DNA from: a virus
Reading direction: 5' to 3' (one strand)
IMG/VR virus record: IMGVR_UViG_3300022902_000004
Span: 254,268-318,267 of that record
DNA: 64,000 bases
Positions 35,358 through 58,196 of this stretch are shown here, in pieces. The position numbers were made by a program, and so were the translations under genes. Position 1 is the stretch's first letter. Each line of letters begins with the position of its first letter. Under the pieces are notes generated by a model, which was not told the origin of the DNA, did not search any database, and saw nothing but the letters and a program-made list of their open reading frames with translations.

Positions 35358-36095
35358 TTACACAGAGGAACCAAGAAACCTGAGCACACCCGATTTTATT
35401 GATGCAACGGATGAATCGAACGCCGCCTCAGACGCGTCGATGTAGAAAAAGTTCTCTTTGAACAGTTTTTCGTATGCCTCTCTGTTCCTTTCAACAGCTT
35501 TCCAAGACCGAATGACGTCCTCTTCATCCACACCTCGGCCACCTTGGGCAGCTCGGTTCACGTTCCTGGCCAACGACACTTCCAATGGAACATCGACATA
35601 AATCATGCCGACTTCATATCCAGCATTAGCAAACTCTTTGAACTGTTTTGAAATCTCTCTGTAGTTGCCACCGGTACCGTCAATCAAAACATTATCGCCG
35701 GTGCCCATGAGTGACTTTTTTAGGTGCTTGGCTGCATTGCGTGCCCGGGAGAACAGCGTCATATTCTGACTGAAGATGGCCCTGAGTCGACGGTATTCTG
35801 GCTCTGCATCGGACATTGCCTGTTCGTCACCAACTCCCTGGGCTTCCAAGAATGTTGCCTTGGCCAATTTGTATTCTTCAAGTAAGTCCTTTCTATCAAG
35901 CGGGATACCTGCCTTCTTGAGCGCCGCCTCATAATCGTCGTCCGGGTTGACTACAGTTAGCTGGCTTCCAATACCAAGTTTTCTAATTGCTGTTGATTTT
36001 CCAGATGCAGGTCCGCCGGCCATGAAAATAGCAGAAGGTTTGGCTTGGAGTGCCTCCCGGAGAACCCGTCGAATATATTGTCGTAGCATTTTCAT
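35358..36095 (-). CDS. P-loop nucleoside/polynucleotide kinase-like protein with CTS-like leader
   Basis: AIFMAGGPASGKSTAIRKLG Walker A; N-terminal MKMLRQYIRRVLRE. Confidence 0.65.
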   Translation of the reverse strand: MKMLRQYIRRVLREALQAKPSAIFMAGGPASGKSTAIRKLGIGSQLTVVNPDDDYEAALKKAGIPLDRKDLLEEYKLAKATFLEAQGVGDEQAMSDAEPEYRRLRAIFSQNMTLFSRARNAAKHLKKSLMGTGDNVLIDGTGGNYREISKQFKEFANAGYEVGMIYVDVPLEVSLARNVNRAAQGGRGVDEEDVIRSWKAVERNREAYEKLFKENFFYIDASEAAFDSSVASIKSGVLRFLGSSV

Positions 36096-36748
36096 AGGTC
36101 CACGTTTGCGTTTGTAATAAGCTTCCCAGCGACGCTCAGGGCACCAATCGTTGGGGTACCACTGGCATAGTATGCCTTGGACAATGAGCTGTTCAGGTAT
36201 TTCTGTTGCTCAGCTTTGCGCTTCTTTTCATCGTTGTGGAAAAGGCCCCACCAATTTGTTTGCATGTCGGCGTCGTCATCTGGTGTTTCTGTTTCGTGGT
36301 GGTCATAATCAGGCCGAAAGTCGAACTGTTTCTTTTCGATGTCATCACGGTTGTTCATGTAAAAGTTCCACACGTTGGTGGCATCCGGTGAGACAGAGGC
36401 TCTATCAGGTGTGAGCCCGAAGCCTTTCATACCAAGACGCTCCATGACAACATCATACAGCATCGGTCCCCAACTATGAGCTGCTTTGTGGCCAGTATTG
36501 ACCCGAGCAAGAATGACAGAATATGCTTTCATTTTCTTGGCGACTTCATCACCTGGTAGCAACTTTGCCGCCACAAACCCATTGATGTCGTCGCCTCGAT
36601 TGAATCGCTTGCCATCTTTGTCACAGTAAAATGCCCGGATGAAATCGCTGGCTTCAACAATCTTGACGTGCACTTCATCCGGCAGGTCATTCGGTCCTTT
36701 GGCAGATTCAGTCAGAACTTGCCTGACATAATTTTGTAATACGTTCAT
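36092..36748 (-). CDS. paralog family F protein (SWGPMLYDVVME motif) with CTS-like leader
   Basis: Trimmed to MNVLQNYVRQVLTE. Shares motif with 56845..57369 and 58853..59479. Confidence 0.55.
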   Translation of the reverse strand: MNVLQNYVRQVLTESAKGPNDLPDEVHVKIVEASDFIRAFYCDKDGKRFNRGDDINGFVAAKLLPGDEVAKKMKAYSVILARVNTGHKAAHSWGPMLYDVVMERLGMKGFGLTPDRASVSPDATNVWNFYMNNRDDIEKKQFDFRPDYDHHETETPDDDADMQTNWWGLFHNDEKKRKAEQQKYLNSSLSKAYYASGTPTIGALSVAGKLITNANVDL

Positions 36749-38499
36749 CACACATTTCCCATCATAATCTTCAGATGTTTCGCGCCTGACTTGCCAATTT
36801 TCCGGTAGTACCAACCATCTGAATCCGGCCCGAAGTTTCTGTTTGGGTGTGGTCCCAGCCATTCGATTGGTTTCTTGAGGATGGCACGAACCTTGGCTTC
36901 ATCTGTCACAGCGTTCACGCCTGCTTTGAATGCAAGCCATGCAGGTGCACCAGACGTCTCGACGAAGGTACCTTTCCTCTTCAGTAAGTCAAACATATGT
37001 TGAGATGTTGGGTTCTTGCCATCTGCACCATCATGCCCGCGACCACCGATCTTGAGGCGACCGTCTTTGTACTTGCCAAAAATGACACCGTCGGGTTGCG
37101 GATCTTCATCCACATCAACGGTATCGAAGAACTCGTAACCACCTGGTAAATCCTCAGGCTTTTTGATTTTGAGGTTGCCACCGATTGGGGCATATGCGGT
37201 TGAAATCAGGTCGAGAACCTCATCATCGATATCAACTTCTTTCCTGTGTACTGCGAGTTCTTCAGCAGGTACATCTTCCCATTTATTTTTAGGTACGCCC
37301 ATATCTGCGAACGTCTTTTCTAGCAGAATGTTCATACGAAGAAACGATTCAGTCAATGACTTGAACACGTCCACCTCAGCAGAGTGCATCGCCTGTCCAA
37401 TCTGGGGACCCTTCAATCCTTTTGCCATTAGTTCCTGTGGTCGGAGTGTTGGGGACCTCTGGACGAACTCCAGGAACCCTTGAACGAACTTCTCGGGCAT
37501 ACCGACTGCCAACGCAAACTCTTCCAGCTTTTCCGGAGGAACCCTAAGTCGCTTGAATTCTTTCTTCAATTTTGGTGAAGTGGACGCAACAATTCCAGGC
37601 AGATTCAATAGGAACTGAACCATCCCGGCCTCGTCGCTTGTGTACTTCATCTTCCGTAGGACCTTGGCAACTGCGCCCGGGTCGTTCCCCCAAAGAAGAA
37701 GGGCAACCTGAACATCGAAATGTTTCGAAGCAGGTGCTGCGTCGACTTCAAGTCCTGGGAAAATCTGTGGCCACAAACCTAGGTCACCAATGAGCCCCAG
37801 AAGGTGCTGCCCGTCGATTGCTGACTTGACTGCCTTAGCAAACTCGTCATGAATACGTTCTGGCGACACGCCTGATAGGTCGTTGTCTCGCTTGATTGCT
37901 GAGGCAGTTGTTTCATCCAAGTCGGAGCCTAGACGAGCAGCGAACCTGACAGCCCGCAGAATACGAAGCTTGTCCTCCCTAAATCGAAGGGCAGGATCAC
38001 CGACAGCGCGGATGACTCCATTCTTTACGTCCTCAATACCGCCAACGTAGTCGACCACCTCACCGGTTGTCAAGTCGTAGAAGAGAGCATTGATTGTAAG
38101 GTCACGACGGTTTACATCGTCCTCGATTGTAGTGAACTCAACAGAGTCAGGACGTCGGCCTTCACCAATGTCATTTCTGAACGTTGCAATTTCGTATTCC
38201 TCACCACCGACAGTTCGAACCCGAACAACGCCAAACGCCTTGCCAGTTAGATCGATGCGATGTGATGGGTCCTTTGAAACAATGTCGATGACACGTTGTG
38301 GTTCGGCACCTGTTGCAAGGTCGTAGTCCTTCGGGATTTTCCCGAGGAGTGTATCCCTGACGGCACCACCAACAACGTATAGCTCCTCACCAGCCTCCAT
38401 GAAGGCATCCAGGATCCCGCCCAAATCGGCAGGAGTCTGCAGGTGCATTTTCATTTTGATTGGGGCACGGTCCAGCATTTCAAGAATGTTTTGTTGCAT
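36748..38499 (-). CDS. cca: tRNA nucleotidyltransferase (CCA-adding enzyme / polyA polymerase family), 583 aa
   Basis: YVVGGAVRDTLLGKIPKDYDLAT head-domain signature. Long C-terminal extension. Confidence 0.8.
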   Translation of the reverse strand: MQQNILEMLDRAPIKMKMHLQTPADLGGILDAFMEAGEELYVVGGAVRDTLLGKIPKDYDLATGAEPQRVIDIVSKDPSHRIDLTGKAFGVVRVRTVGGEEYEIATFRNDIGEGRRPDSVEFTTIEDDVNRRDLTINALFYDLTTGEVVDYVGGIEDVKNGVIRAVGDPALRFREDKLRILRAVRFAARLGSDLDETTASAIKRDNDLSGVSPERIHDEFAKAVKSAIDGQHLLGLIGDLGLWPQIFPGLEVDAAPASKHFDVQVALLLWGNDPGAVAKVLRKMKYTSDEAGMVQFLLNLPGIVASTSPKLKKEFKRLRVPPEKLEEFALAVGMPEKFVQGFLEFVQRSPTLRPQELMAKGLKGPQIGQAMHSAEVDVFKSLTESFLRMNILLEKTFADMGVPKNKWEDVPAEELAVHRKEVDIDDEVLDLISTAYAPIGGNLKIKKPEDLPGGYEFFDTVDVDEDPQPDGVIFGKYKDGRLKIGGRGHDGADGKNPTSQHMFDLLKRKGTFVETSGAPAWLAFKAGVNAVTDEAKVRAILKKPIEWLGPHPNRNFGPDSDGWYYRKIGKSGAKHLKIMMGNV

Positions 38500-38556
38500 G
38501 TTCGTAAGCCTGTTCCTTGTCGCCTAACTAAATATCTGCAACCTGTATAAACCGTC

Positions 38557-38850
38557 TTACCCAGCATTCACCAGCACATATGATGATGTGTTGAAAAGCT
38601 GGGTTTCCCCGTGTATAAGGATTTTGTGATGCCATTGGCTTGGGTAATCACAATCGCATATTCTTACATGCTCATTTTGCAATCTATCGAGCTCTTCCCG
38701 ATCTGCATTAGAATAACATCGAGGAGCCGCACTAACTTGAAACGTTTTTATGAAAAGCCCAATGTCACCTTCGAAGTCCCAACCTATAACCCGAACCAAT
38801 GTGCCGGACGGTCTGTTAGGATCTTCATTGATGCTCTCGAATTTGCTCAC
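38557..38850 (-). CDS. hypothetical protein (97 aa)
   Basis: ORF in chain. Confidence 0.5.
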   Translation of the reverse strand: MSKFESINEDPNRPSGTLVRVIGWDFEGDIGLFIKTFQVSAAPRCYSNADREELDRLQNEHVRICDCDYPSQWHHKILIHGETQLFNTSSYVLVNAG

Positions 38851-39146
38851 TTCTTACCTTTCTTGAGCGCCTTCTTTGCCTTCTTGGATGCCTTGAGCAC
38901 AGCGGAATTGGAGTTTGTTGGCTCCTTCGTCTTCTCAGCTCCCGGGACCTGACTCAGGCGAATCTTCACTGAGAACTTATCGATTGCCCGCTTTACAACA
39001 CGGACCTCGACATTCGTGACATCAGACTTCTTCCACTCGTTGACAAGCGCCTTACGCTTCGAGTTGGCCTTCTTGAATGTGTTGACCGTGCACACGACCT
39101 TCCATGGTTTGACGGTATTTTTCACTGTACGGTTCTGCTCGTTCAT
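38847..39146 (-). CDS. small basic (Lys-rich) putative DNA/RNA-binding protein
   Basis: KKAKKALKKGKK tail; ATGA overlap. Confidence 0.5.
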   Translation of the reverse strand: MNEQNRTVKNTVKPWKVVCTVNTFKKANSKRKALVNEWKKSDVTNVEVRVVKRAIDKFSVKIRLSQVPGAEKTKEPTNSNSAVLKASKKAKKALKKGKK

Positions 39147-39568
39147 GCTTCATCCTTTTTTAGGCGCTCAAGCCATTTTTTATCACACGCATCACACCTA
39201 ATACTCATATAGTTGTGATTTCGCATTTTCCCTTTCTCACCACACTCTTCACAGATTCGATAACTGTGAACCTCGGCCGCGTCAATCACGCCTCGAATAT
39301 AGTTGTCGCCACCTTCGTAGTAAAAACGTAGGCCACCAAACTTCTCTTTGATTTGGACCGCAACAAGTTGCTTGGTCTTCCCGATAACCTCTTCCACATG
39401 CTTGTTTTTCGCCATGCGATGTTGGATTATCCGAAGCGTGTCATCAAGCAGATCAATCCAACCATCACCGACAGCAATTCCCCATAACATGGGTGAACCA
39501 GGCTTCTCACACCGGGATAGAATAACAGGATATTTTTTGCATAATTCATCTTGTTTCTCTTTGTTCAT
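39143..39568 (-). CDS. hypothetical protein with C-terminal zinc ribbon
   Basis: CEECGEKG ... CDACDKK. Confidence 0.55.
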   Translation of the reverse strand: MNKEKQDELCKKYPVILSRCEKPGSPMLWGIAVGDGWIDLLDDTLRIIQHRMAKNKHVEEVIGKTKQLVAVQIKEKFGGLRFYYEGGDNYIRGVIDAAEVHSYRICEECGEKGKMRNHNYMSIRCDACDKKWLERLKKDEA

Positions 39569-39601
39569 AGTAGATCCTATTCGATTTCAACCAGGTGTTC
39601 A

Positions 39602-40384
39602 CTACACCTTCTTCTTCTTTTTGAGGCGTGGTTTGACCAAGTGGTCAGGGTGCACCGGAAGAGGGGCAGCACCGCAAAGAATGTCGATGGCCAACTTACC
39701 GTTCTTGGCGACGTAGCAAGACTTGACGACCAAAGCCGGGATGTCTTTCTTCGTCATGACCAAGTCGCCGGCGGGCCAGCGCAAGCGAGCATCAGCAAGC
39801 TTGGCACGTTTGCCTTTGAACATGCCACCAACTTTCTCGGTTGCCCACTTGTTCCAAGGAGCAGTGCCTTCGATAGCCGCTGCGCATTTCTTGAGGGCTT
39901 TGTCGATTCCTTGGCAGGTGTAAAGGTAGTCAGGCGAGTAAGCCCGACCCATGACAACGCCAACCTCGACCAGCGCTTGCAGTTCATCATCCGGAACCCA
40001 TGCCCCGTTTTTCTTGACGCCCTCTGCATTCTCGAGCAGGCCATTCATCCACGAGGTTTGTTTCTCGCTAAGTGCCCAGCCTCGACCAAGCTTGTAAGCA
40101 AAGTCAAGCATGACATCGGCATGCTCCTTCTCGACACCCGGAGTTGCCGCCGCCTCTTTGAGTTTGGCGACCATCTCTTTGTTTTGTGGCTCCGGTGGGT
40201 TGGTAAGCACGACGGAGTCAAACCACTCACGCTGCTTCTTGGTCATGCCCTTGCCACGACCCATACGGAAAATCATATCGCTTACAAACCGGACGCTCCG
40301 GTCCTGTTTGTGGTTTTGCTCGGTCCAGCGGGCGACCATTGCATTGCCAAGTTCGATTCGTTTCACTGCAGACATTCGAGCCAT
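39602..40384 (-). CDS. hypothetical protein (260 aa)
   Basis: Long ORF, promoter cassette upstream at 40400-40450. Confidence 0.6.
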   Translation of the reverse strand: MARMSAVKRIELGNAMVARWTEQNHKQDRSVRFVSDMIFRMGRGKGMTKKQREWFDSVVLTNPPEPQNKEMVAKLKEAAATPGVEKEHADVMLDFAYKLGRGWALSEKQTSWMNGLLENAEGVKKNGAWVPDDELQALVEVGVVMGRAYSPDYLYTCQGIDKALKKCAAAIEGTAPWNKWATEKVGGMFKGKRAKLADARLRWPAGDLVMTKKDIPALVVKSCYVAKNGKLAIDILCGAAPLPVHPDHLVKPRLKKKKKV

Positions 40385-40442
40385 GGTAACCCCCTCCGGA
40401 ACACCCCGGGAACATATATATTATACCACGTTTTCCTTTGTC

Positions 40443-40643
40443 TTACACGAAATCTTCGAAAGATCGGGGAATACCCCGCTTGGACGTTTTCTTGATCATT
40501 GAAGGCCGGTCAGGCCGGGATCGACAATGAGGGCATTCCCCATCAGGGCGTTTCTTTTCTTTCCATTCGTCACATGGATCACAGTAATACGCATCGAATA
40601 TTTCATTCAAGTGAACCTGATTGTTGCAAACCTCACACCTCAC
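40443..40643 (-). CDS. small zinc-ribbon protein
   Basis: CEVCNN ... CDPCDEW ... CPHC. Confidence 0.5.
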   Translation of the reverse strand: MRCEVCNNQVHLNEIFDAYYCDPCDEWKEKKRPDGECPHCRSRPDRPSMIKKTSKRGIPRSFEDFV

Positions 40644-40876
40644 TTATCGAATCGCCTATCGACAACTCGAACTTCCATAGGCTTCTCAGCCCAGCCGGCG
40701 TTTGTGTATCGGTTTGACATCATGATGGTACGGTCATGCTTCCCTGGCACCATGGCGATGACTTCATCCTCCTTGAGGTTCCCGTTTTTCAATGCATCCC
40801 ACCAATCAGGTCCGGTGCACTCGGCGACCGCAACAAGGTTGACACCGTATGCTCGATAGAAAACAGTGTAGACCAT
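40640..40876 (-). CDS. hypothetical protein (78 aa)
   Basis: ATGA overlap. Confidence 0.45.
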   Translation of the reverse strand: MVYTVFYRAYGVNLVAVAECTGPDWWDALKNGNLKEDEVIAMVPGKHDRTIMMSNRYTNAGWAEKPMEVRVVDRRFDK

Positions 40877-41005
40877 TTCTATACTCCTGCGCAGAAGAAG
40901 CCTAGGCCAACCGCAATGGCAGTAAATCCTACCAATGCAGCGTAAAAGACACGGTCGTAAGTTCGACCCAATTTGCTTTGCTCGTGATTCATTTCATTCT
41001 CCCCT

Positions 41006-41506
41006 TTAGTCCCACCAACCGCGGGCTTGTTTTGTGAAATCGGCCCATGCCTTGTCCCACATTTCATTTTCAGTATCACTACATCTGGTGTAGTACTTCG
41101 CAGCCTCATCAGATTGCGGTGGCATTTCAACACAACTACGACCTTGGGCCTCAGCTTTCACCTGTGCAACCTGGACTTCCTCCCACCATACTTCACTGTT
41201 TGGTTTATATCCCATTTGCATTTCGACGTAATCGAATGGGTTCCTCTGCACTGCGAGCTTGAAACAGAAATCCCTAATCTCCATTGCACTCTCTTTCGAG
41301 CTCATGTGGCGATCATTTTTCTCAATCGTGTCAGCCAGCCGTTCCAGTGACTTGATAAAGAGATCCAGGCAATATGAGTAATCCCAGTGCCGATGGTTTT
41401 TCAACTGATCACGAAAGAACCATACGTTGCGGCAGAACCAAACAATGTTCCAAAACTGATCGGTTGCTTCCTCGATAAAGTCGAGAACCCGCCTATAAGC
41501 CTTCAT
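41006..41506 (-). CDS. hypothetical protein (Trp-rich)
   Basis: Trimmed to MKAYRRVLDF with a GGAGG RBS. Confidence 0.5.
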   Translation of the reverse strand: MKAYRRVLDFIEEATDQFWNIVWFCRNVWFFRDQLKNHRHWDYSYCLDLFIKSLERLADTIEKNDRHMSSKESAMEIRDFCFKLAVQRNPFDYVEMQMGYKPNSEVWWEEVQVAQVKAEAQGRSCVEMPPQSDEAAKYYTRCSDTENEMWDKAWADFTKQARGWWD

Positions 41507-42014
41507 CCTCATCCTCCCACACTTCGGCGTCGAAGCCGGCGTCGATAGCCATGTTGGCAATGAGCTTGACAGGATCCTCACCCTTTTCCAAGAACTTGGC
41601 GAGGTATGCCATGGCTCGCAGCCCATCACATTTCACGTGTTTGAACATGTTAACCTGGGAGCCTGCCATCATCCAGTTAATATGGCTTTGGACAGCTTCA
41701 GCATCTGGGCGTTTGGGCAACTCGAGCTTGGTAACCCACATACGCTTTTTTACGGCTTCAGCGTGCTTCTCACGGAGGTTAGCACAGTTCTTTTCCCATT
41801 GAGTAACAAGATCTTTTTCAACCTCGTCCTTATCATAGTATGTATGACCGTACGATGAATACAGACTCCGAATCTGGTCGTTGGTAAACGTCACGCCATC
41901 GTATGCCTGACCGCCTAGCAACTGAATCATTGTTTCATCAGTTGGGGTCGCGCAGCGAAAGCCGCTTTTGTGACCAGGTATTTTTCGTCGAGACTCAACC
42001 ATGGGAACCTCCAA
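41493..42014 (-). CDS. hypothetical protein (173 aa)
   Basis: GGAGG RBS. Confidence 0.55.
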   Translation of the reverse strand: MEVPMVESRRKIPGHKSGFRCATPTDETMIQLLGGQAYDGVTFTNDQIRSLYSSYGHTYYDKDEVEKDLVTQWEKNCANLREKHAEAVKKRMWVTKLELPKRPDAEAVQSHINWMMAGSQVNMFKHVKCDGLRAMAYLAKFLEKGEDPVKLIANMAIDAGFDAEVWEDEDEGL

Positions 42015-42323
42015 TTAGTCAGATACGGTTGCTTTGGCGCCGCTAGAGAATGCACCAAGCCCAAGCAAATAGCCAAGCCAGTACCATCCGCCATTATTGC
42101 ATGCATCATAGCATGACACGGAGTCGTCGAATAGCGAATAAAGGAAAGCAAGACCTGCAGTCATACCATTCCAAAGCCCAAACCAGAACCCACTCTCCTC
42201 ACTCGAGGTGCAGCCGATCGCCTTGTTCACAAGCTCCTGGTTAAACCCGTCAGCACACGCAGAAAAAAGCATGCATGCGAGGAGGAGGAGAAACAGGTTC
42301 TTGGTGTTCTTATTCAAATTCAT
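42015..42323 (-). CDS. putative lipoprotein / membrane protein (lipobox LFSAC)
   Basis: N-terminal LFLLLLACMLFSAC and Gly/Trp-rich hydrophobic C-terminal segments. Near the endolysin. Confidence 0.5.
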   Translation of the reverse strand: MNLNKNTKNLFLLLLACMLFSACADGFNQELVNKAIGCTSSEESGFWFGLWNGMTAGLAFLYSLFDDSVSCYDACNNGGWYWLGYLLGLGAFSSGAKATVSD

Positions 42324-42467
42324 TTGTGCCGTCCGTATTCTAAAAAAGTGCCAATCCCCAGAGAACCAACATCGTAACTATCCAAATAGTAAACATGTGC
42401 ATCCTCCAGTTCCTATAAACATTATACCACGATTTACGGCCGTTTACACAAAACTGATGTTATTTGA

Positions 42468-45350: not shown

Positions 45351-45440
45351 TGGTGTACCCGCCCGGAGTCGAACCGGGGTGTTGAACGCTTCAATTTCAT
45401 GTCATTCACAAGGTTATCCGGTTCTTCTCAACCGGCAAGT
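45351..45440 (-). tRNA. tRNA-like element (canonical T-arm and ACCA 3' end; 5' half not foldable by eye) - possibly degenerate
   Basis: Minus strand ...CCCGGTTCGACTCCGGGCGGGTACACCA-3'. No matching acceptor 5' strand found. Followed by ~350 nt without ORFs. Confidence 0.3.
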
Positions 45441-45787
45441 CTGCCTATAAAACACCCGTCCCGTTCTAGACACTGGGACCCACCTGGCGAGCCAGGGAAC
45501 CATTTAGCAACCATTTTTATCTCAATGCGGTAAAACATCCAGCCAATTTTGGGTATCAAGGTAGTTGGCCACCTCGCAATTATGCAGCTTGTGCGTAAGA
45601 GTACTCCGAGTTATCGTTAGCAATTATCATTTCAGCGTTTTTACGAAGCCGCGCTGCCCTTCGCCTTGCACATTCAATATTATTCGCCCAATCGAAACCA
45701 GTTCGGGCACATTGTTTGTCAAATTCTCCTATGTTCAGCGACGTTTCATCGCCCTCAATATAAGTATAATCATTTTGCGAAAGATGT

Positions 45788-46468: not shown

Positions 46469-46957
46469 CTATCGTCGATGTGCTGCAAGTCGTTCAGAGA
46501 CAACCTTTGCACTCATTCCCTTTATCGGTCGTTCGCCGTACCCGGTGTGCCATTTGAAGTTTTTCGAAGGCTTTCCCCATCCCCGGGTGATGTCACCAAG
46601 CTGGGCAATCATGCCCCGGAGGTTCCTTGCTACAACTGTACCTTTGACACCTGGTTCTGACGTCCAAAGACCAGAAACCACCGGTGGGGTTGACCCACCC
46701 ATCCCATCGTAGCCACCTTGAGCACTTCGCTCAGTCAACTCGATTGTGACCGTGTCAGTCTGCGGATGATACCATACCTTGAAAAGTTCTGATGTACGTG
46801 AGTCTTGGCCAATGAACGAAACACACTCCCCGATCAATCGGTTGGTATCCCAATTCATCTTGATTGGCTCGATTCGGTTATATCGAACGTCATACGAATA
46901 CGACTCCGACAGCGCTCGCTTTACAACATTCCGCAATTTATTCTCAGTGATTTTCAT
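46469..46957 (-). CDS. hypothetical protein (162 aa)
   Basis: ORF between the nucleotidase and purA-like genes. Confidence 0.55.
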   Translation of the reverse strand: MKITENKLRNVVKRALSESYSYDVRYNRIEPIKMNWDTNRLIGECVSFIGQDSRTSELFKVWYHPQTDTVTIELTERSAQGGYDGMGGSTPPVVSGLWTSEPGVKGTVVARNLRGMIAQLGDITRGWGKPSKNFKWHTGYGERPIKGMSAKVVSERLAAHRR

Positions 46958-49299: not shown

Positions 49300-49830
49300 C
49301 TAAGCTTTGTCGCGGGATCCGTACCGCATGAGAACATTGTACTCGTTTGTCTTTCCAATCCGTGAAAAAATGAGCGGGATATAAATCCAGATCTTCTTAT
49401 CCTTCCACTTTTCTTTGAGCTCTGGGATGATTGCGTCTTTCAATCGCTGGCCAAATTCAATGTCAGCCACCGGCTGACCGCTCGATAGTTGTTGTGCAAT
49501 GTCATCGTTTGTTGGTCCCTGGACTGTTGCGGTCAACGTGTGCGTTAATGCGACGACCGCGTCGCCATCATCAGGAAGTGCCGCCGGAAGCGTCATAATA
49601 TCCCAGTCAAGATCAAGGTCGCGGAAGACTCTTGTAATCGCTGGAAAGACGATGTCAACAGACTCAGGAGTCCACGTGCGGGGTTTCTCCTTTGGAGGGT
49701 GGCCTGTACTCATAAGCGCATACTTCGCCTGGTTTTCCAGGAGATTCGCTGTCAAATACGCTCGTTTCTCCTCCAATCCTTGAAGCAACCCTGTCTTACT
49801 CCATTTTTCCACAATTCCTTCACGCGTCAT
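49300..49830 (-). CDS. hypothetical protein (176 aa)
   Basis: ORF chain. Confidence 0.55.
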   Translation of the reverse strand: MTREGIVEKWSKTGLLQGLEEKRAYLTANLLENQAKYALMSTGHPPKEKPRTWTPESVDIVFPAITRVFRDLDLDWDIMTLPAALPDDGDAVVALTHTLTATVQGPTNDDIAQQLSSGQPVADIEFGQRLKDAIIPELKEKWKDKKIWIYIPLIFSRIGKTNEYNVLMRYGSRDKA

Positions 49831-50580: not shown

Positions 50581-50863
50581 TTTCTAGCATGTCCTTGAAG
50601 CCTTGAATGCTCCTTTTCAGCATTCCCTCGAGCTTCTCGTCAGTTGCAAACACCGGGTAAACACATTCAATTCGTGTCTCAGATTCAACTGGAATAATCA
50701 CCGTAATGATTTCACCACAATCAGGTCCGGTGGGTTCGGATGTTTGCCCGGTTTGTTCCTTAAAGTAGTTTTGGGCATTTTCAAGGTAATTATGACGATC
50801 ACCAAAGGCGACTTTGCGAGTGTCCAAGTAGATTGCCAAAATCAATAGCTTATTCATTTCCAT
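50573..50863 (-). CDS. hypothetical protein
   Basis: ORF chain. Confidence 0.5.
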   Translation of the reverse strand: MEMNKLLILAIYLDTRKVAFGDRHNYLENAQNYFKEQTGQTSEPTGPDCGEIITVIIPVESETRIECVYPVFATDEKLEGMLKRSIQGFKDMLEND

Positions 50864-51131
50864 TCCTCAATTTTTCGTAGTTTTTGATGCATGATGCCTC
50901 TGACAATTCATTTGGTAGCCATGCTTTATCGAAGTACCTGTCACGTTGGATACCGAGCTCATCAATGTAAACGTAGCCTAGGTTGTTAGGGTACAGGAAG
51001 TACACACCCGGAAGCAACCCCTTTGGAAGCTCGTCCTCATGAAATGATCCTTGGAACTTCACCGGCTGACCGTTGTACGTCTTTGGTGGCTGCCCAAAGA
51101 TTGACGCGATTTCTAGGTTCACATAGCTCAT
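50850..51131 (-). CDS. hypothetical protein (93 aa)
   Basis: ORF chain. Confidence 0.5.
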   Translation of the reverse strand: MSYVNLEIASIFGQPPKTYNGQPVKFQGSFHEDELPKGLLPGVYFLYPNNLGYVYIDELGIQRDRYFDKAWLPNELSEASCIKNYEKLRNGNE

Positions 51132-51162
51132 GTATTTATTCTATGAAAAAGGGTTGTGGTGT

Positions 51163-51381
51163 TCACTTATGACGATTGATAAGGGAGAGCTCGCAAGCCA
51201 TTCGGGTGGCATTGCAATCTGCAAACATAATGCAAACAACATCTTTATCATCACACACCCGTGTGACTATGCCGGGATGAAGGTCAGACTGTTCAAACTC
51301 TGTTTGCCAGCCATGCCGTGCTTCACGGGCGTTGATAAGATCCCCAACCTCAAAGATAAAATTCGGTGCTTCTGTTTTCAT
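51163..51381 (-). CDS. small beta-barrel-like protein (FIFEVGDLINA)
   Basis: Trimmed to MKTEAPNF with a GGAAAAGG RBS. Confidence 0.45.
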   Translation of the reverse strand: MKTEAPNFIFEVGDLINAREARHGWQTEFEQSDLHPGIVTRVCDDKDVVCIMFADCNATRMACELSLINRHK

Positions 51382-51556
51382 AAAACCTTTTCCATGCGCT
51401 TTCAAACAGGAAATGACAAGTGGCAAGGACGGCATGCAATGCCATTGTCATTCCTGTGCTTTCTTTGATGTTCCCAGTGACTAGGTAAATGACCAGCAAC
51501 GTAATGGAAACCGATATGCACCTCCACAGTATTACTTTGATCAATGTACCTTTCAT
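51350..51556 (-). CDS. small membrane protein
   Basis: 2 TM; directly downstream of nadV. Confidence 0.45.
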   Translation of the reverse strand: MKGTLIKVILWRCISVSITLLVIYLVTGNIKESTGMTMALHAVLATCHFLFESAWKRFYENRSTEFYL

Positions 51557-51557
51557 G

Positions 51558-52967
51558 TTAACCCCACGTGTTCTTGCGGACTTCGTCCAGCGTGTAATCC
51601 TGTGTCACCTCACCATCCTCAAACACCGTCTCGAGCAGGTCAGCATCTGATGCCGAAGACTCCGGAACGGTCATGATTTTATTTCCGTCTCTACCTGTCA
51701 TTGCAACCAAGGCATGTCGGCCCGGCTTCGAGCGCTTACCTGGAGCATCAATCGGATCCTTGAACACGTCTCGGCCTTCACCATTTACGCTAATCCAAGA
51801 ACACTTGAATGCAAACTTCTGGGTGTCACGGTTCATCTTCTGGAGCAAGGCTCCTCCTGACCCGAATGCGATATTATCGGCACTCCAACCAGCAGCCATG
51901 ATTGCATCAAGAATCTGGGAAATCACAAAGCGGTCAACTCCATCCCCTTGGATGATACGCACGTGAGGATCTAAGACCTTGTAACCTTTCTTGTTGGTGG
52001 TAAATCCAAAGGCCTCCCCAAGACGCTCCAGACACTCCAGGACAACACTCTGTGGGTCTCCTGAGTCCGGCCGTACGACCAGCGTTCCATCTCGAGCCAG
52101 GATTTCTGCTTTCAGTTCCTGACCCCACAATTCTGAGCACGCTTTGTAAATGTCGTAGCTATCTGAAACGCATGCAACCAGTCCGGTTGGGTATTGCTCC
52201 AGCATGTTTCGAAAGGCATTGACCTCGCCTTCCTTTCCCCACGATGTAATTGTCGAGTGCTCACTGGCTGGAATGCTGAATCCTGCCATTTGAGTGTTGT
52301 AGTGGTTCCTGGCCAATACCAAGGCTGCCACCGTATCTGTTCCCATGAAGTTGACAAGGTGACCGAAGCCACCGATGCCTGCAGTTTCAACAGACGACAC
52401 ACCACGGAAACCGAAGTCGTGCAGTTTGAAGTAGATGCCTGCTGGTGTTCCGGATTTCTCCAGTGCCGCAGCAATAATCAACCGGCTGGCCCGACTAATC
52501 GTTGCCACGGTGCACGGGTACCAAACCTGAACCAGCAAGGTCTCGAGGTAATTGGTCAACCACCAACACTTCGGGTCTGTATTCTCAATCGTCAACATCA
52601 CGTTGTGGGTCGGAACAACTGTTCCTTCCCTGACCGCTTTGATTCTGACGGGCAACCGCCCATCATGCTCATTGAGAATGTGCTCCCAGCCTTCTCGGTT
52701 GAAACACGTATCGTTGCCGAAATGCAGATGGAAGAATTCCTCTGCTTCGTCGATGCGTTCCTGTGTTACGACCTGTCCCTCGAGGTATTCCTGCAAGAAG
52801 TACTGCAGTCCCACGAAGACAACATCGTCGAATTCACCGCCGCGACTCTCAAAGTAGGAGTAAACGGTCTCAGTTCCCTCAGGATATTGCTTGGAATGTG
52901 ATACCTTGTATGAATCTGTCATCAAGATAATGTTTTTTGGATCGATGTTCTTGTTGTAGTAGCTCAT
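51558..52967 (-). CDS. nadV: nicotinamide phosphoribosyltransferase (NAMPT)
   Basis: 469 aa with NAPRTase-family motifs (GTDTVA..., FGFRGVSS). AAGAGGTGAAAGC RBS. Confidence 0.85.
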   Translation of the reverse strand: MSYYNKNIDPKNIILMTDSYKVSHSKQYPEGTETVYSYFESRGGEFDDVVFVGLQYFLQEYLEGQVVTQERIDEAEEFFHLHFGNDTCFNREGWEHILNEHDGRLPVRIKAVREGTVVPTHNVMLTIENTDPKCWWLTNYLETLLVQVWYPCTVATISRASRLIIAAALEKSGTPAGIYFKLHDFGFRGVSSVETAGIGGFGHLVNFMGTDTVAALVLARNHYNTQMAGFSIPASEHSTITSWGKEGEVNAFRNMLEQYPTGLVACVSDSYDIYKACSELWGQELKAEILARDGTLVVRPDSGDPQSVVLECLERLGEAFGFTTNKKGYKVLDPHVRIIQGDGVDRFVISQILDAIMAAGWSADNIAFGSGGALLQKMNRDTQKFAFKCSWISVNGEGRDVFKDPIDAPGKRSKPGRHALVAMTGRDGNKIMTVPESSASDADLLETVFEDGEVTQDYTLDEVRKNTWG

Positions 52968-53968
52968 GCTTTCACCTCTTTCTTCGATGTGATCTTCACT
53001 TTCTTCGGGGACAGTCTTGTACGTTCCTTTGGCATGTTTTTTTCAATGTGCTCCACTAGTGCATTGCAAAGCGGAACGTGCTCATCGCAAACGAAATTTG
53101 AAATCGTTGACGGCAAAACATCCAGTCCACACTTAAGCCTTTCGATTTTGACCCATTCGACTTCGTACAAATCATCTGTCGCCTCAATGGGTCCCCACAA
53201 GTACACACCGGTGAAAAACACAGTCGTGATTTTATCCTGACGTCTTCGATAGCGCCAGTCGTCGATAACGAAAGAGCCAATGTATTTGAGTGGCTTGCTC
53301 ACCTCAATGTTCCCACCGGTTTCCTCGTTGAATTCTCGGAGAGCTCCTTGCTCATGGGTTTCTCCGGGCTGCAAAAAGCCGCCAGGGAACCGTAGCTTGG
53401 CACCTTCATACTTACGACCCATCAAGACTTCATTCGTCTTGTAGTTGATGACAGCCATGTCGGTCGTGCCATACGCAGTCGGGTAACGATTGTATGAACC
53501 GTAAATGACACCGCGGCGGAAGTCGATTGAACCGTTGGCACGTAGTGCTGCTTCGGCTCGAACCTGTGTTCCGCTGATGTAAATCTTCTGCTCCAACTCA
53601 ACGGTTGGGAAGACACCATGGTATCGCAACATGAAGCTGTCTCGGCTACCGTAAAGGGTAACATCTCCAACAGGACACACTTCTCGAATCTTCTTGTCTA
53701 AGAGGGCAGACCAGGGCTTGTCGAATTCTTGGTCTGAAATTGGTAGAACAATAATCTCAGGGTACTTTTCCTGAATCATCTTTTTTCGTAGATCGTAATC
53801 CAGTGGATTCCTTTTGTCTCCCAAACCGGGACAAATCCCGAGGAACACGATCACTTTGTTGTGGGTCTCAGCCACTTCATCCAGAACACCAACGTGTCCT
53901 GCATGCAACTCCGGAATCTGAAATCTCCCGACCACGACTCCAATCTCACGCTTTTTATTATCACTCAT
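52964..53968 (-). CDS. natV: bifunctional NMN adenylyltransferase / Nudix ADP-ribose pyrophosphatase
   Basis: N-terminal GRFQIPELHAGH nucleotidyltransferase motif; C-terminal Nudix box GGFLQPGETHEQGALREFNEETG. ATGA overlap with nadV. Confidence 0.85.
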   Translation of the reverse strand: MSDNKKREIGVVVGRFQIPELHAGHVGVLDEVAETHNKVIVFLGICPGLGDKRNPLDYDLRKKMIQEKYPEIIVLPISDQEFDKPWSALLDKKIREVCPVGDVTLYGSRDSFMLRYHGVFPTVELEQKIYISGTQVRAEAALRANGSIDFRRGVIYGSYNRYPTAYGTTDMAVINYKTNEVLMGRKYEGAKLRFPGGFLQPGETHEQGALREFNEETGGNIEVSKPLKYIGSFVIDDWRYRRRQDKITTVFFTGVYLWGPIEATDDLYEVEWVKIERLKCGLDVLPSTISNFVCDEHVPLCNALVEHIEKNMPKERTRLSPKKVKITSKKEVKA

Positions 53969-54112
53969 TTATACACTCTTCCTTGCTAGGACCACAATCA
54001 ACCTAAGCCTCCCGGCTGTGATTATGATGTTTCGCTGTTTGCCTCCCGGCATTTACGAGAACCCCTTGTCCTCATGATCTAATTATACCCGCCACCATGG
54101 CGATGTACAAAA

Positions 54113-55147
54113 CTATGCTCCGTGCGGTTTATTCTCCTGCTGAGTTGCAGATGAAACCTTCACAAACTCGTGGCGTTCATACAACTCCGGTACTGTTCGT
54201 GCTCCTGAGTATGACAGGCCACTTCGAATCCGCGCCGCGAAGGGTTTCATTACACTAGCAACAGATCCCTTTGGATCAATCATCGCTGTGGTACCTTCAA
54301 TGTATTGTGGGTCCTTGTCACCAGGCTTCTTACGGCGATGCTGGGCAACATTAGATGCCATACCTTCATACGCGATCTTGCCATTCCATGTTCCACCGTT
54401 TGGGCACTCATTCGTTCCTGCGAGAACAGATCCAAGCATCACAAAGCTTGCACCGGCGGCGAGGGCCTTTACAGCGTCACCACTGTTTCGAATGCCACCG
54501 TCTGCAATAATGGGTGCCTCGCTGCGGGATATTTTGACACGACAAACAGACTCAAGCGTCGGCAACCCGTGACCGGTTACAACCCGAGTGGTGCAAACAC
54601 TTCCTCCACCGATGCCAACACGAACCATATCAGCACCTGCTTCATAAAGAAACTCAGCACCAGCTGCTGTGGCAACGTTGCCAGCAATGATCAGAATTTT
54701 ATCACCAAACTCATCCCGTAATCGGTGAATTGCGTCTTTAACATTCTTATGATGTCCATGGGCTACATCGATTAGGAAAATCTTTGTCCCACATAATTCG
54801 TATGCTGCTTTGGCACGTACAAAAAAGTCCCCTGTCGCGCCAATTGCAACTCCGTATAGCGGAGCAGTCACTTTGCGAATGATGTCTAGCTGTTCCTCAA
54901 CGGTATTGTAACGATGGATAATACCCATCCCACCGCAATCACCCAAGGCATTGCACATCTCGTCTTCACAAATCGTTGTCATCGGCGCCGCAATGACGGG
55001 AAGATACAAATAACCAAACCCTCGAGGCAGGCCAGCACCAATCACAATGTCATCCCTCGAGGGGATCGATGATTTGCGTGGTACCAGAAGTACATCATCA
55101 AAACAAATTGTGTCATACGCAAATGCGTTATGTGCATATCGTGTCAT
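54113..55147 (-). CDS. GMP reductase / IMP dehydrogenase family protein lacking CBS domains (GuaC-like)
   Basis: FDDVLLVP and GIGGGSVCTTR catalytic loop. ~344 aa, trimmed to MTRYAHNAF with a GGAG RBS. Confidence 0.75.
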   Translation of the reverse strand: MTRYAHNAFAYDTICFDDVLLVPRKSSIPSRDDIVIGAGLPRGFGYLYLPVIAAPMTTICEDEMCNALGDCGGMGIIHRYNTVEEQLDIIRKVTAPLYGVAIGATGDFFVRAKAAYELCGTKIFLIDVAHGHHKNVKDAIHRLRDEFGDKILIIAGNVATAAGAEFLYEAGADMVRVGIGGGSVCTTRVVTGHGLPTLESVCRVKISRSEAPIIADGGIRNSGDAVKALAAGASFVMLGSVLAGTNECPNGGTWNGKIAYEGMASNVAQHRRKKPGDKDPQYIEGTTAMIDPKGSVASVMKPFAARIRSGLSYSGARTVPELYERHEFVKVSSATQQENKPHGA

Positions 55148-55148
55148 A

Positions 55149-56054
55149 TTACTTATCTCCCCATGATTTTGTTCGCAAGTGAATCGAGAACAGCTTTGCA
55201 GCTCGAGCACCAATTGCTTTCCTTACCTCTCGGGTTGGCTCAAACTCGCCTTCACCTTCGATCATGACATCTTCGATCATTGCAGGAATGATTTTCTGCA
55301 TGTCAGCGTAACCCACATCTTGCGGGAACTTGTCAAGCACATGCTCCAGGCGCATATCGGTAACCCACTCTTCAGCAATTGCTTGGGCGCCATTCAGCTT
55401 CTTCCTTGCATCGGGATCCAAGATGGTGTCACCTTTCGATGCCCGCTCAGAAAACTCAGCAGTCTTGTGTTTTGCCATCAGTCGCTTACCGCTCGGCATT
55501 GCAACCTCTTCGATTGGCCGGAGCACGACACCTTCAGATACTTTATCCTCGATGATACCTCGGCGTTTGGCAACCCGAGACGGTTTATCTCGTTCAATCG
55601 TGACTGCCGCAAGGTTGGCTGGGATCCGTTCATATGGAACGAACTCAAGCCCAAACTTAAGGACAAACTCTTCAGCCCGAGGAACAGGCAACCATTCATT
55701 GCCGAGTTTGACTTCAAATGCGATGAAGAGTAGTTTTGGTCCATATGTGTGCGACATTTTCTGTTGAGCGCCGCCATATGCCTCACCGAAAATGGTTACA
55801 TCAGCATGCCCAAGCTCGTGAAAGATGTCAATGAGTCCTTGCTGATAAAACAAGTCGGTGAACTCTTGATGCTTCGACCCGCCAGAAAAGAATCGCAATA
55901 CGGCATTGTTCTTATTCTTCGGTGTCTTGTTGGTATAACGGATATGTGCCGATGTGCCATGAACTTTCTCCATGGCATAACACTCCTTGAAAAGCAGGAT
56001 GTTTTGGTCTTTGTATAGATTTGAGATCTTGGCGTATCCAATAATGTCCCCCAC
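55149..56054 (-). CDS. rnl2: RNA ligase, Rnl2 family (probable GTG start)
   Basis: Motif I EKVHGTS (T4 Rnl2 KIHGTN). ~300 aa. Confidence 0.75.
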   Translation of the reverse strand: MGDIIGYAKISNLYKDQNILLFKECYAMEKVHGTSAHIRYTNKTPKNKNNAVLRFFSGGSKHQEFTDLFYQQGLIDIFHELGHADVTIFGEAYGGAQQKMSHTYGPKLLFIAFEVKLGNEWLPVPRAEEFVLKFGLEFVPYERIPANLAAVTIERDKPSRVAKRRGIIEDKVSEGVVLRPIEEVAMPSGKRLMAKHKTAEFSERASKGDTILDPDARKKLNGAQAIAEEWVTDMRLEHVLDKFPQDVGYADMQKIIPAMIEDVMIEGEGEFEPTREVRKAIGARAAKLFSIHLRTKSWGDK

Positions 56055-56069
56055 GGGACCTGTGCCCCT

Positions 56070-56112
56070 TATTTATAACTCAATTATATCATAAAAATTG
56101 TCAGTTTACACG
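56070..56112 (-). promoter_or_regulatory. early-promoter cassette (TGATATAAT variant) driving rnl2-guaC-natV-nadV
   Basis: Minus strand GTGTAAAC ... TGATATAAT, ~25 nt upstream of the start. Confidence 0.45.
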
Positions 56113-56157
56113 AACAACTGGATATTTAGTAACGTATACATAACCCATGGAGAATAT

Positions 56158-56823
56158 ATGAAACGCCATTACATAATTTACACATACAAAGATCCTCGAA
56201 ACGACAACATATTCTATGTTGGCCAAAGTATCAACGGAATGAAAAGAGCCCAAGCCTTTAGCCAACACAACGTTTGGTGCAGGAGAGTTATTGCAAAAAT
56301 TGAAGCATCGGGAATGCATGTTGAAATAGAGATCACTGATGAACTTGAAAAGACACGCGACGTCCGAAATGAATTGAACGTCGCTGAAAAGGCTCGCTGT
56401 GCTGCTATTCAAAATGAAGGGCATCATCTAACAAACCTGCTTTTTGGTGAAAACATGAATAGACCGCATCTGTATGAGACAGAAAGAAAAGCTCATGGAA
56501 ACAAAGGAAAAGTTCGAACCGCCGAACATAGAAAGAACATGAGTAAGGCCCAAAAAGGACGTAAGCATTCACCAGAAACAAAAATGAAAACGTCTCAATC
56601 TCTCACAGGTAGAAAAAAGTCTGAGGCTCACAAAAAAGCAATGCGTGATAATTGGTATGAAAAGCGGGGCCCAGAAGTTTTCGAGAAGATTGCCGCATCA
56701 AAACGAGGTAAACCTAGAAGTGAAGAAACAAAGGCGAAAATTTCAGCATCTGGTAAACAAGGTGCACTGAAAGGATGGGAAACCCGAAGACGCAACGCTG
56801 AAGCTAAAACCATACCAGGATGA
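56158..56823 (+). CDS. GIY-YIG homing endonuclease (Seg-like) with NUMOD3 repeats
   Basis: MKRHYIIYTYKD ... FYVGQS. Repeats AEHRKNMSKAQKG, PETKMKTSQSLTG, EETKAKISASGKQ. GGAGAATAT RBS. Opposite strand to neighbours. Confidence 0.75.
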   Translation: MKRHYIIYTYKDPRNDNIFYVGQSINGMKRAQAFSQHNVWCRRVIAKIEASGMHVEIEITDELEKTRDVRNELNVAEKARCAAIQNEGHHLTNLLFGENMNRPHLYETERKAHGNKGKVRTAEHRKNMSKAQKGRKHSPETKMKTSQSLTGRKKSEAHKKAMRDNWYEKRGPEVFEKIAASKRGKPRSEETKAKISASGKQGALKGWETRRRNAEAKTIPG

Positions 56824-56844
56824 ATCTTACACGAAGTTCACACA

Positions 56845-57369
56845 TTACTTTTCTAATAGTTTCTTCATTGATTTGAGTTTTTTCAATGTTGTTGGAGGTT
56901 TTGTCCAGCACATGCCAAGAGCGGGAGTGTCTGAGAATTCGCCGACCTCATCAATATTCGTTCCAGTCACATCCGGGCGGTAATCACGGTAGTGGTTCCA
57001 TACATTTTGGGCTTCATCTGAAACTGGGTCGCGGTCGGCCATGAGCCCATCGCCTTCCTTTGTGGCATACTCCATGGCGACATCGTATAGTAACGGTCCC
57101 CATGATTTTGATGCCCTGACGAAGTTTATCATCCAGACGTTCCCGGCGATATCATGCATCGTTTCTACTGATGCCGGTGGGTCAATGTACATCTCGCCGA
57201 GGGGTGTTCCGCCATGATCGATGGGCTTCTTTGATTTGTCGCTGTAGTAAATGTGTACACCGTACTCATCCATTGCAGACGAGTCAATGGTGATATACAC
57301 ATCGTCTAGGTCATTGATACCGACGGCACGCTCGAGGAGTATTTCAATGTATTCACGGAGGAGCTTCAT
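56845..57369 (-). CDS. paralog family F protein (SWGPLLYDVAME) with CTS-like leader MKLLREYIEILLE
   Basis: Motif shared with 36092..36748 and 58853..59479. Confidence 0.55.
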   Translation of the reverse strand: MKLLREYIEILLERAVGINDLDDVYITIDSSAMDEYGVHIYYSDKSKKPIDHGGTPLGEMYIDPPASVETMHDIAGNVWMINFVRASKSWGPLLYDVAMEYATKEGDGLMADRDPVSDEAQNVWNHYRDYRPDVTGTNIDEVGEFSDTPALGMCWTKPPTTLKKLKSMKKLLEK

Positions 57370-58196
57370 ACCAATTGAGCCCTCAGTTTTGTCTTTGGGT
57401 ATTTGCCCGCCAGTGCGGCGACGGCTTTTATGTTCTTCGCTGAGTCATCTATAAAGTAAATGTCGTCATGGCCGTTGTTGATTTTTTCTTCAATCCAGTC
57501 TGCTTTGACTTGCGGGTCTGAATTGCCTAGCGTCACCAATTCGATGCTGCTTGTATCTATACCAATGTCTTCTAGGAAATCAAGTATTCCTATCCTTGCG
57601 GCATCACCTCGAGCAGTCAAAATCACCACATGCCTGCCTTGGCTTCCGGCTGCCAAAACCCTGCGAAGGATTTTCATGTGCCCCTTGATTGCCTGCGGGT
57701 TTTTGAGGGCACCACCAAATTGGCTATAGTCGAATTCGTCACCTTTGACAGGTTTATAGATCGACCACTCGGCTGGCGTCTGTTCTATCGTCTCACCGGA
57801 TGCCTTGTTCAAGATGATCATTGAATCGGTCATCGCCAGCGTATCATCAAAATCAAAAACCCTTAGCTTTCTTTCGGTAAGCATTTTTTGCTCTACTAGA
57901 TTGCCGAACCGAGAAATATCTTTCGCCGAAACCCAATAGTGTCGTTCGCCATCAGGAAATTCGTCGTCTAAGTTTGCATATTGCTCAGGTATTTCAATTG
58001 CCACAAGCTCATTTCCATAATCATTCGTTGCTTCGCCATTAGGACTTGTTGAAAAATAAACCTCTGTTCCAAAACCCGTTTTTATCTTCGAGGTAAAACC
58101 ATTTCGCTGTATCGCGGCGGCGTTGTTCGTTCGATGGTACAGCAATAGCGTTTTTTCTGCAAGTAGCATCCCAATATATTCGCGGAGGAGTTTCAT
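57366..58196 (-). CDS. two-domain protein: unknown N-terminal domain plus HAD-like phosphatase (DxDxT), CTS-like leader MKLLREYIGMLLAE
   Basis: VFDFDDTLAM motif I; ATGA overlap. Confidence 0.6.
   Translation of the reverse strand: MKLLREYIGMLLAEKTLLLYHRTNNAAAIQRNGFTSKIKTGFGTEVYFSTSPNGEATNDYGNELVAIEIPEQYANLDDEFPDGERHYWVSAKDISRFGNLVEQKMLTERKLRVFDFDDTLAMTDSMIILNKASGETIEQTPAEWSIYKPVKGDEFDYSQFGGALKNPQAIKGHMKILRRVLAAGSQGRHVVILTARGDAARIGILDFLEDIGIDTSSIELVTLGNSDPQVKADWIEEKINNGHDDIYFIDDSAKNIKAVAALAGKYPKTKLRAQLV

Follow-up and report, generated by a model that had tools for sequence, protein, structure and literature searches.

Why should proteins that have nothing else in common begin with the same short run of residues? 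The question is raised by a window of 64,000 nucleotides (the whole stretch of DNA analysed here, positions 254,268 to 318,267 of IMG/VR virus record IMGVR_UViG_3300022902_000004), for which a preliminary description had pointed to four proteins with a common N-terminal leader, similar to the capsid-targeting sequence (CTS) on the internal proteins of phage T4. We find that a T4-like capsid-targeting and cleavage leader is the best-supported reading, and we give it somewhat more than an even chance, because the leader matches the N-termini of S77-type prohead proteases and the ELLRE sites of capsid proteins, and because two alternative leader classes, together with one of the leader-bearing families, family F, occur in T4-type head modules. 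The four leaders stand at the coordinates first given, each at an initiator ATG:

35358..36095, minus strand: P-loop kinase (Zeta_toxin/AAA_33-like), class-1 leader MKMLRQYIRRVLRE at 36054-36095, P-loop from residue 27
36092..36748, minus strand: family F protein, divergent GNAT fold, leader MNVLQNYVRQVLTE at 36707-36748
56845..57369, minus strand: family F protein, GNAT fold, leader MKLLREYIEILLE at 57331-57369
57366..58196, minus strand: HAD protein, leader MKLLREYIGMLLAE at 58155-58196, then an extra domain of ~85 residues and the HAD domain (DFDDTLA, residues ~103-276)

A regular expression for the motif, run on the six-frame translation, matched four times, at precisely these starts, and not once in 300 residue shuffles; the number of chance matches expected among the 118 N-termini is 7e-8. 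Overlap or direct contact with the stop codon of the gene upstream (ATGA or TAATG) makes the starts credible; the one at 36748 is an internal Met within a longer open reading frame (ORF), 36092-36862. Each leader does end in L-x-E (L12-x-E14; the one at 57369 has 13 residues and ends L-L-E). The claim that four unrelated proteins share it holds in part: past residue 16 no similarity links the kinase, the HAD protein and family F, but the two family F proteins are paralogues with 33% identity, so that the window contains three unrelated families and not four.

The leader reaches far beyond this window. A degenerate DNA pattern for MKLLREYIR, run on IMG/VR contigs, found 23 stretches on 20 contigs, ten of them 125-285 kb long. 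In the related phage contigs and loci that we compared (numbered L001, L282 and so on), the class-1 consensus M(K/N/R/S)LLREYIR.LL.E stands at the start of at least 31 unrelated cargo families from marine phages, and tandem arrays hold up to 10 consecutive genes that each carry it. Conservation was measured with one sequence per cargo cluster, over 31 clusters unrelated by BLAST. The information content is 1.9-5.4 bits at positions 1-12 and 14 and falls below 0.9 bit at every position from 15 onward; read by position, the consensus is M, K/N, L, L, R, E, Y, I, R, E/G, L, L, x, E. L4, Y7 and I8 are near-invariant and E10 is present in 17 of the 31 representatives, while L12-x-E14 is found in 24, with a one-residue shift in most of the rest; L4-R5-E6 occurs as well. 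The leader is thus a detachable, strictly N-terminal module, whose conservation stops exactly at Glu14.

Two alternative leader classes, MKITKxQLxxIIxE (class 2) and MKLIMENWxxFLxE (class 3), swap in register with class 1 on the same cargoes. The kinase homologue in L010 has a class-1 leader, the one in L005 the class-2 leader MKITKSKLRSLVRE plus an extra domain. Genes beside family F on phage contigs of 168 kb and 260 kb likewise show the leader first and then unrelated sequence, and the cargo domain can follow directly: in L009 residue 16 is already the first of the HAD DxD strand, and in both L001 and L009 the leader sits on the HAD domain without the extra domain of the window protein. We considered whether that extra domain is ART-PolyVal-like, as in a cargo of L010, and found no support for this, as there is no similarity and the leader alone aligns. 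Also excluded as a class-1 leader was the start of the MKLLREYIRKEVKRL protein of L027 and L065, which forms a separate family with a varying N-terminus. Most cargoes are enzymes of 100-690 residues, and the majority match no known family; among the others are an RNase_T exonuclease and weak matches to ART-PolyVal, Fic, GNAT and Tox-MPTase. Small genes starting MKITKRQLRRIIRE (class 2) form tandem arrays of their own (L032:228-2721 and L392:10825-11964), interleaved with class-1 genes in L392. In the literature, the strings LLREYIR, KRQLRRII and ENWRKYL occur in no paper, LREYIR matches an unrelated immunocapture paper, and marine CTS arrays are described in no paper that we found.

The exchange of leaders is clearest in family F, which is a divergent GNAT acetyltransferase fold with the GNAT alpha/beta architecture. 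Its members start with class 1, with class 3 in the form MKLL(L/F)ENWR.YL.E or with class 2 in the form MKLT..KLK.LI.EV, each followed by AAKGP.DLP; of 170 word-index matches nearly all start MKLLREYIRELLTEAAKGP.DLP. An exhaustive profile search returned 2,749 clusters at 50% identity, and some members occur as fused parts of proteins 450-1367 residues long. Neither Pfam nor PHROG gives a match for the family, and no curated GNAT model or acetyl-CoA motif Q/R-x-x-G-x-G/A was found; the conserved GWGPLLYDVAME may, by our own reading, stand at the position expected for GNAT motif A. The AlphaFold model has a mean predicted local distance difference test score (pLDDT) of 85. It draws the leader as a helix over residues 2-12, and the mean pLDDT of 47 over residues 1-10 suggests a flexible extension rather than a part of the fold.

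How close is this leader to the T4 sequence? IPII and IPIII of T4 start MKTYQEFIAE, followed by A; gp23 has FLTE, then AE, gp24 has MAKINELLRE, then S, and gp21 starts MNEPQLLIE(9)TW (all sequences read directly). The proposed likeness is borne out: MKLLREYIRE and MKTYQEFIAE are identical at positions 1, 2, 6, 8 and 10 and alike at 4, 5 and 7, with a hydrophobic residue at 4 and an aromatic one at 7 in both. gp21 cleaves after L/I-X-E, and in the T4 CTS residues 4 and 7 set targeting while 8 and 10 set processing (PMC9026906). L4, Y7, I8 and E10 of the leader (E10 in 17/31, absent from the four window leaders) are, by sequence analogy, chemically like T4 Y4, F7, I8 and E10. Both leaders have the form M-K-x-(hydrophobic)-x-E-(F/Y)-I-x-E, end in L/I-x-E and sit as one short N-terminal element on unrelated, fast-evolving proteins, whose genes are scattered among accessory genes outside the head module; ipII and ipIII of T4 lie among denV, e and nudE. 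Apart from the CTS, the T-even internal proteins, defence proteins of diverse kinds, have nothing in common (PMC3012670), and the CTS is possibly an evolutionary device for loading varied proteins (PMC9026906). The differences are equally plain. The T4 CTS has 10 residues, the leader 14; T4 carries the CTS on 3-4 proteins, whereas here dozens of cargo families per lineage stand in tandem arrays; and the cargoes are mostly enzymes of 100-690 residues, under three interchangeable leader classes.

The best sequence match to the leader is the N-terminal propeptide of the S77 protease. A leader-like match led us to T4-type head modules, in which Pfam confirms Terminase_6N, Portal_T4, Peptidase_S77 and Gp23. 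Among 8000 S77 proteases scored from a very large marine T4-like group (all at E <= 1e-10; group GC content 0.39-0.49), the start reads M(S/A)K.LLRE(Y/F)Y(E/A)LC.GG.CQDLLTE, in several precisely MKLLREYYELCEGGICQDLLTE; gp21 of cyanophage Syn1 starts MKLITENIEDIQILTE. MKLLREY and LLTE thus follow each other as in the leader, right at the N-terminus, where the catalytic domain does not reach, since the Pfam match begins at about residue 24. In the marine proteases, unlike in the leader, a Cys loop of 8-9 residues (LCEGGxCQD) separates the two halves, and judged by sequence the protease N-terminus appears to be a class-1 leader with this loop inserted. The role of the propeptide of the gp21 protease is itself only a hypothesis (PMC9026906).

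Further matches come from the neighbours of the protease. In 45 of 68 distinct major capsid proteins of these head-module loci, LLENQAK precedes ELLRE, and S/A comes next; by analogy with T4, ELLRE would be the L-x-E site at which a propeptide cut is expected. Small proteins encoded between the portal and capsid genes start MKLIMENW..F (class 3), MKITKxQLKQIIKEE (class 2) or MKKSELKKILKPLIKEC, and their genes occupy the slots of gp67, gp68 and gp22 in T4. A class-3 head-module protein is homologous, with leaders in register, to a class-1 array protein on a 201-kb contig (BLASTP 7e-14). In two loci, L282 and L331, the S77 protease and a leader-bearing family F gene lie on one contig. The order in L282 is TerL, Portal_T4, two genes, a 304-residue family F protein with a class-3 leader, a membrane protein, Peptidase_S77 and three class-2 proteins; here family F was recognized with an hhalign probability of 96%, leader and GNAT motif being aligned.

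The window itself contains an indirect sign of the same ancestry:

49300..49830, minus strand: gp23-like ORF of 176 residues, matching gp23-type major capsid proteins over their first ~110 residues (KWxKxGLL ... LLENQAK)

It has only three homologues in 5.8 billion proteins and may be the trace of a T4-type head in this genome. A further indirect hint that the array lineage has such a head is what it shares with the head-module contigs, namely a 136-residue ORF, an FtsZ/tubulin-like protein and the PrkA-SpoVR-YeaH trio. The trio is 53-64% identical between the array lineage and the head-module contigs (L032:12719-17197, L136:13611-18072). The FtsZ/tubulin-like genes (GGGTGS; L036:11268-12443, L005:239-1342, L150:6534-7574, L241:12628-13662) adjoin a ClpP-like gene in the array lineage and lie inside T4-type head modules in relatives.

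If the capsid-targeting reading is right, the leader would be an exposed amphipathic N-terminal helix that docks the newly made protein on the prohead's scaffolding core. A gp21-type (Peptidase_S77) prohead protease would then cut at L12-x-E14, possibly also at L4-R5-E6, with MKLLREYIRELLTE-AAKGP as a candidate cut in a class-1 cargo, and the mature cargo would stay in the head and enter the host with the DNA. Such cargoes would include the GNAT-fold family F, the Zeta/AAA_33-like kinase, the HAD phosphatase, a protein with an HExxH motif and many more in the relatives. We infer that this phage itself has an S77-type protease and that its leader proteins are packaged, cleaved and injected. The wider claim, that a widespread lineage of large marine phages loads its capsids with dozens of enzymes through three interchangeable leaders, for which the prohead protease and core proteins supplied their N-termini as models, is tentative and falls slightly short of an even chance. 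The arsenal so loaded would include GNAT acetyltransferases (the 2,749 clusters), kinases, phosphatases, nucleases, peptidase-like proteins and perhaps an RNA-repair kit.

A number of observations weigh against capsid targeting. The preliminary description had made the idea depend on a gp21-like protease elsewhere in the genome, and the sequence covered gave none: neither the 64-kb window nor ~8 kb of left flank contains an S77 protease, portal or capsid gene, and no class-1 array contig has an S77 protease or gp23 capsid gene in the portions readable. Capsid and protease scans of IMG/VR placed no array contig among the best 80-120 matches listed, where other phages dominate, and ~3 Mb of head-module loci hold no class-1 cargo within 10 kb of a capsid gene. 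The only protease type seen in the lineage is ClpP-like, with one or two copies. A relative, L022, encodes a family A polymerase and RecA and no T4 replication genes, and the leader genes are grouped, operon-like, with early-type metabolic genes. Glu10 is missing from the window leaders, which leaves only the L-x-E at 12-14 (and the L-R-E at 4-6) usable in them. The T4 late promoter TATAAATA was not seen at the leader genes; it is unenriched even in the head modules of these groups, and therefore permits no statement on the timing of expression. Finally, leader codons 5-9 have a synonymously constrained core, CGY GAR TAC ATA AGR, in the window and in loci such as L004, L009 and L025.

Other routes to the head genes of the array-bearing genomes gave none either. 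Local tblastn with T4-type head proteins, a search with the gp23-like ORF of the window, a profile search of 5.8 billion proteins, walks from the ClpP gene and from cargo X, and look-ups of family F contigs all found no head module of these genomes. The ClpP-like protease has its best PHROG matches in head maturation protease families (1e-43), while Pfam calls it CLP_protease; its gene neighbours are a helicase, YeaH, SpoVR and PrkA, or RNR and ThyX. We considered it as a ClpP-type (S14) head maturation protease that could process the leaders and set it aside, as the gene does not lie between portal and capsid genes. A scan for sigma-70 promoters and terminators showed no excess.

Beyond the four proteins first listed, the window contains further ones with a leader or a weaker relative of it, at 58851, 62083, 46957, 14659 and in the ORF of the CCA-adding enzyme. 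Together with a third family F paralogue they are:

36748..38499, minus strand: fused ORF, CCA-adding enzyme (residues 1 to ~380) and a complete leader-cargo protein (381-583)
58198..58851, minus strand: protein of 217 residues with a HEIQHW (HExxH) motif, divergent leader MSSLITFIKRILTE at 58810-58851
58853..59479, minus strand: third family F paralogue, WGPLLYD motif, non-canonical N-terminus MRSTYEGTKYLVECFQQSTGGRRLLIEG
61406..62083, minus strand: protein of 225 residues, leader-like N-terminus MNNNLREFVNEVLSD
46469..46957, minus strand: protein of 162 residues, class-2-like N-terminus MKITENKLRNVVKRALSE
14354..14659, minus strand: small protein matching phrog_13953, class-2-like N-terminus MKITKKNLQKLVEQVV from an internal Met of ORF 14354-14698

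Three of these proteins have homologues in relatives: the L001 homologue of the HExxH protein starts MKSLQAFVKRILLSE, that of the 225-residue protein starts MNDIRKFISETLAD, and L154:3197, 51% identical to the protein at 14354..14659, starts MKLTKKQLQEIIREE. The third family F paralogue is the first gene of the cluster 59479-56845. In the fused ORF, the enzyme part matches Pfam PolyA_pol at 9e-35, and the C-terminal part is 50% identical over 199 residues, the full length, to a stand-alone class-1 protein, L007_1279 (E=3e-67). The leader inside the fusion has decayed to SLTESFLRMNILLEK (about 37315-37359), and an internal start at MNILLEK is possible.

What, then, do the kinase and the phosphatase do? 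They had been put forward as an injected kinase-phosphatase set. Both genes are indeed leader-tagged, but they are separate and 21 kb apart, not a single polypeptide of the T4 Pnkp type, and the window also encodes an RNA ligase and the CCA-adding enzyme, so that the two may just as well belong to an RNA-repair set. The kinase matches Zeta_toxin (6e-15), AAA_33 (6e-11) and the polynucleotide kinase family phrog_505 (7e-7), and the HAD protein, with its DFDDTLA, matches phrog_415, also polynucleotide kinase, at 9e-13; PDB matches in the comparison with Pnkp-type enzymes were adenylate kinases only, and weak (E about 4e-3). The repair-like set runs from the kinase (35358-36095) over the CCA enzyme (36748-38499) and the RNA ligase (PF09414, 55149-56054) to the HAD phosphatase (57366-58196), to which L004:11699 may add a 2H phosphoesterase, by our own reading of its HVTL motif.

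This grouping bears on the foremost alternative, in which the leader is an uncleaved docking helix that tethers enzymes to a hub in the cytoplasm and not to the capsid. Candidates for the hub are a phage GroEL or Hsp70, an FtsZ/tubulin-like protein, the RNA-repair complex or a host machine. Kinase, phosphatase, RNA ligase and CCA enzyme, clustered in the window, would act jointly in the cytoplasm; the arrays stand among metabolic and replication genes (RNR, ThyX, NadV, NatV); the lineage has its own GroEL, sigma factor, HSP70 and FtsZ/tubulin-like proteins; and the leader is predicted as a free helix. A docking helix does not explain, however, why an invariant Glu within L-x-E marks the limit of conservation, nor why the same motifs occur at the N-termini of S77 proteases and of small head-module proteins, nor why capsid proteins have ELLRE followed by S/A. 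As no hub candidate could be pinned down either, we regard it as unlikely.

Does selection act on the peptide at all, or on the nucleic acid that encodes it? We compared the codons of 61 distinct leader DNAs with those of their cargo parts. At four positions the leader is strongly biased:

Arg5, codon CGY: leader 93%, cargo 25%
Tyr7, codon TAC: leader 84%, cargo 44%
Ile8, codon ATA: leader 93% (57/61), cargo 32%
Arg9, codon AGR: leader 100%, cargo 52%

This constraint on synonymous sites points to an added or alternative role at the level of the nucleic acid. It speaks for a 5' coding cassette at the mRNA or DNA level, in which the peptide would be a by-product and the sequence would serve translation initiation or speed (the rare ATA-AGR pair), a regulator site or a recombination site for swapping cargoes. 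That the array genes are translationally coupled, and that the leader decayed once it had become internal in the CCA fusion, agrees with such a cassette. Leu3, 4, 11 and 12 and Glu6 and 14, however, use all their synonymous codons while the amino acids stay constant, and therefore selection must act on the amino acids of the leader. A cassette also sits poorly with three unlike leader classes of the same helical character that swap in register on one cargo, with the presence of the motif on the protease as a protein feature despite very different codon usage, and with an upstream region that shows only a Shine-Dalgarno-like G-rich patch. We consider it improbable, somewhat more so than the docking helix.

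The least probable alternative, and by our estimate a distinctly poor one, is a degradation or processing tag for a phage ClpP-like system that times the lifetime or activation of effectors in the cytoplasm: the one or two ClpP-like proteins of the lineage, the transfer-messenger RNA (tmRNA) gene of the window and an ATE_C transferase (N-degron pathway) encoded beside a family F gene in a relative would fit, but we saw no ClpX, ClpA or ClpS-like adaptor, the leader looks like S77 substrates and the S77 N-terminus rather than known ClpXP tags, and we know of no precedent for degradation tagging of >30 enzyme families.

Returning to the capsid-targeting leader, several known systems offer partial parallels. 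In phiKZ-like giant phages (phiKZ, 201phi2-1, SPN3US) many head-internal proteins are targeted by N-terminal propeptides; their ejection proteins are cut after Glu by a diverged gp21 homologue, and paralogues may have identical N-termini. Those propeptides, unlike the leader, are mostly at least 100 residues long, lack a single short motif and have S/A-X-E as the cleavage motif, and we saw no sequence relationship between the two. The polyvalent proteins of phages and conjugative elements, reportedly described by Iyer et al. in 2017, overlap with the cargoes in their domains (ART-PolyVal-like, metallopeptidase, kinase, acetyltransferase-like), and the fused family F members of 450-1367 residues resemble them; unlike one giant polyprotein, however, most cargoes here are separate small genes with one leader each. 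Encapsulin cargo-loading peptides are short terminal peptides that steer diverse enzymes into an HK97-fold shell. In contrast to the leader, they are usually C-terminal, have a different sequence, are uncleaved and serve no injection, and no encapsulin-like gene was seen.

If capsid targeting holds, the leader would be a sequence tag for injected effectors, and metagenomic sequence would be enough to list the proteins that uncultured phages inject. The T4 internal-protein idea would widen from 3-4 small proteins to arrays of tens of enzymes and would yield a searchable catalogue of candidate enzymes for anti-defence and host takeover, family F alone contributing ~2,700 clusters. The three natural targeting peptides would be candidates for loading foreign proteins into capsids. 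The matches also bear on the question whether gp21 of T4 has, in its own N-terminus, a propeptide for targeting.

As for its surroundings, the window has ~118 genes, nearly all on the minus strand. Those recognizable are all accessory: the CCA-adding enzyme, the RNA ligase, NadV, NatV, PurA, a GMP-reductase-like gene, a MoxR ATPase with a VWA protein, a Nudix protein, a lysozyme, GIY-YIG and HNH endonucleases and an MVP/SPFH protein. Genes for head or tail proteins and for a protease are absent. The same genome is present in ENA assemblies as contigs of 184.5 kb (k141_352318) and 137 kb, and ~8 kb past the left end of the window lie a DnaB-like ATPase, the ClpP-like protease and a helicase. 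It is remote from cultured phages: among 50,697 phage records, the stretch from the kinase to the CCA enzyme (blastn) and the HAD protein, the window F protein and F homologues with other leaders (tblastn) had no match, and for the MoxR ATPase the identity to cultured phages does not exceed 28%. The tmRNA lies at 45351-45710 (minus strand), with the tag peptide ANDNSEYSYAQAA, on which ARAGORN and Rfam RF00023 (92 bits) concur.

Two further features of the window deserve mention. Next to the leader-like gene 61406-62083, a protein of 520 residues (62172-63734, minus strand) has a major-vault-protein (MVP) shoulder domain (2e-21), a vault repeat and an SPFH/Band 7 signal, and a 94% identical copy is present in L001. 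The notion that the leaders are an address for a vault-like compartment found no support, as the MVP-like gene was seen only in L001, the closest relative. Lastly, about 15 small paralogous genes on the minus strand, between about 5771 and 32362, start MTPxQAxxxTxxM..., examples being 5771-6076, 16332-16598, 23064-23423, 24742-25113 and 25481-25960.

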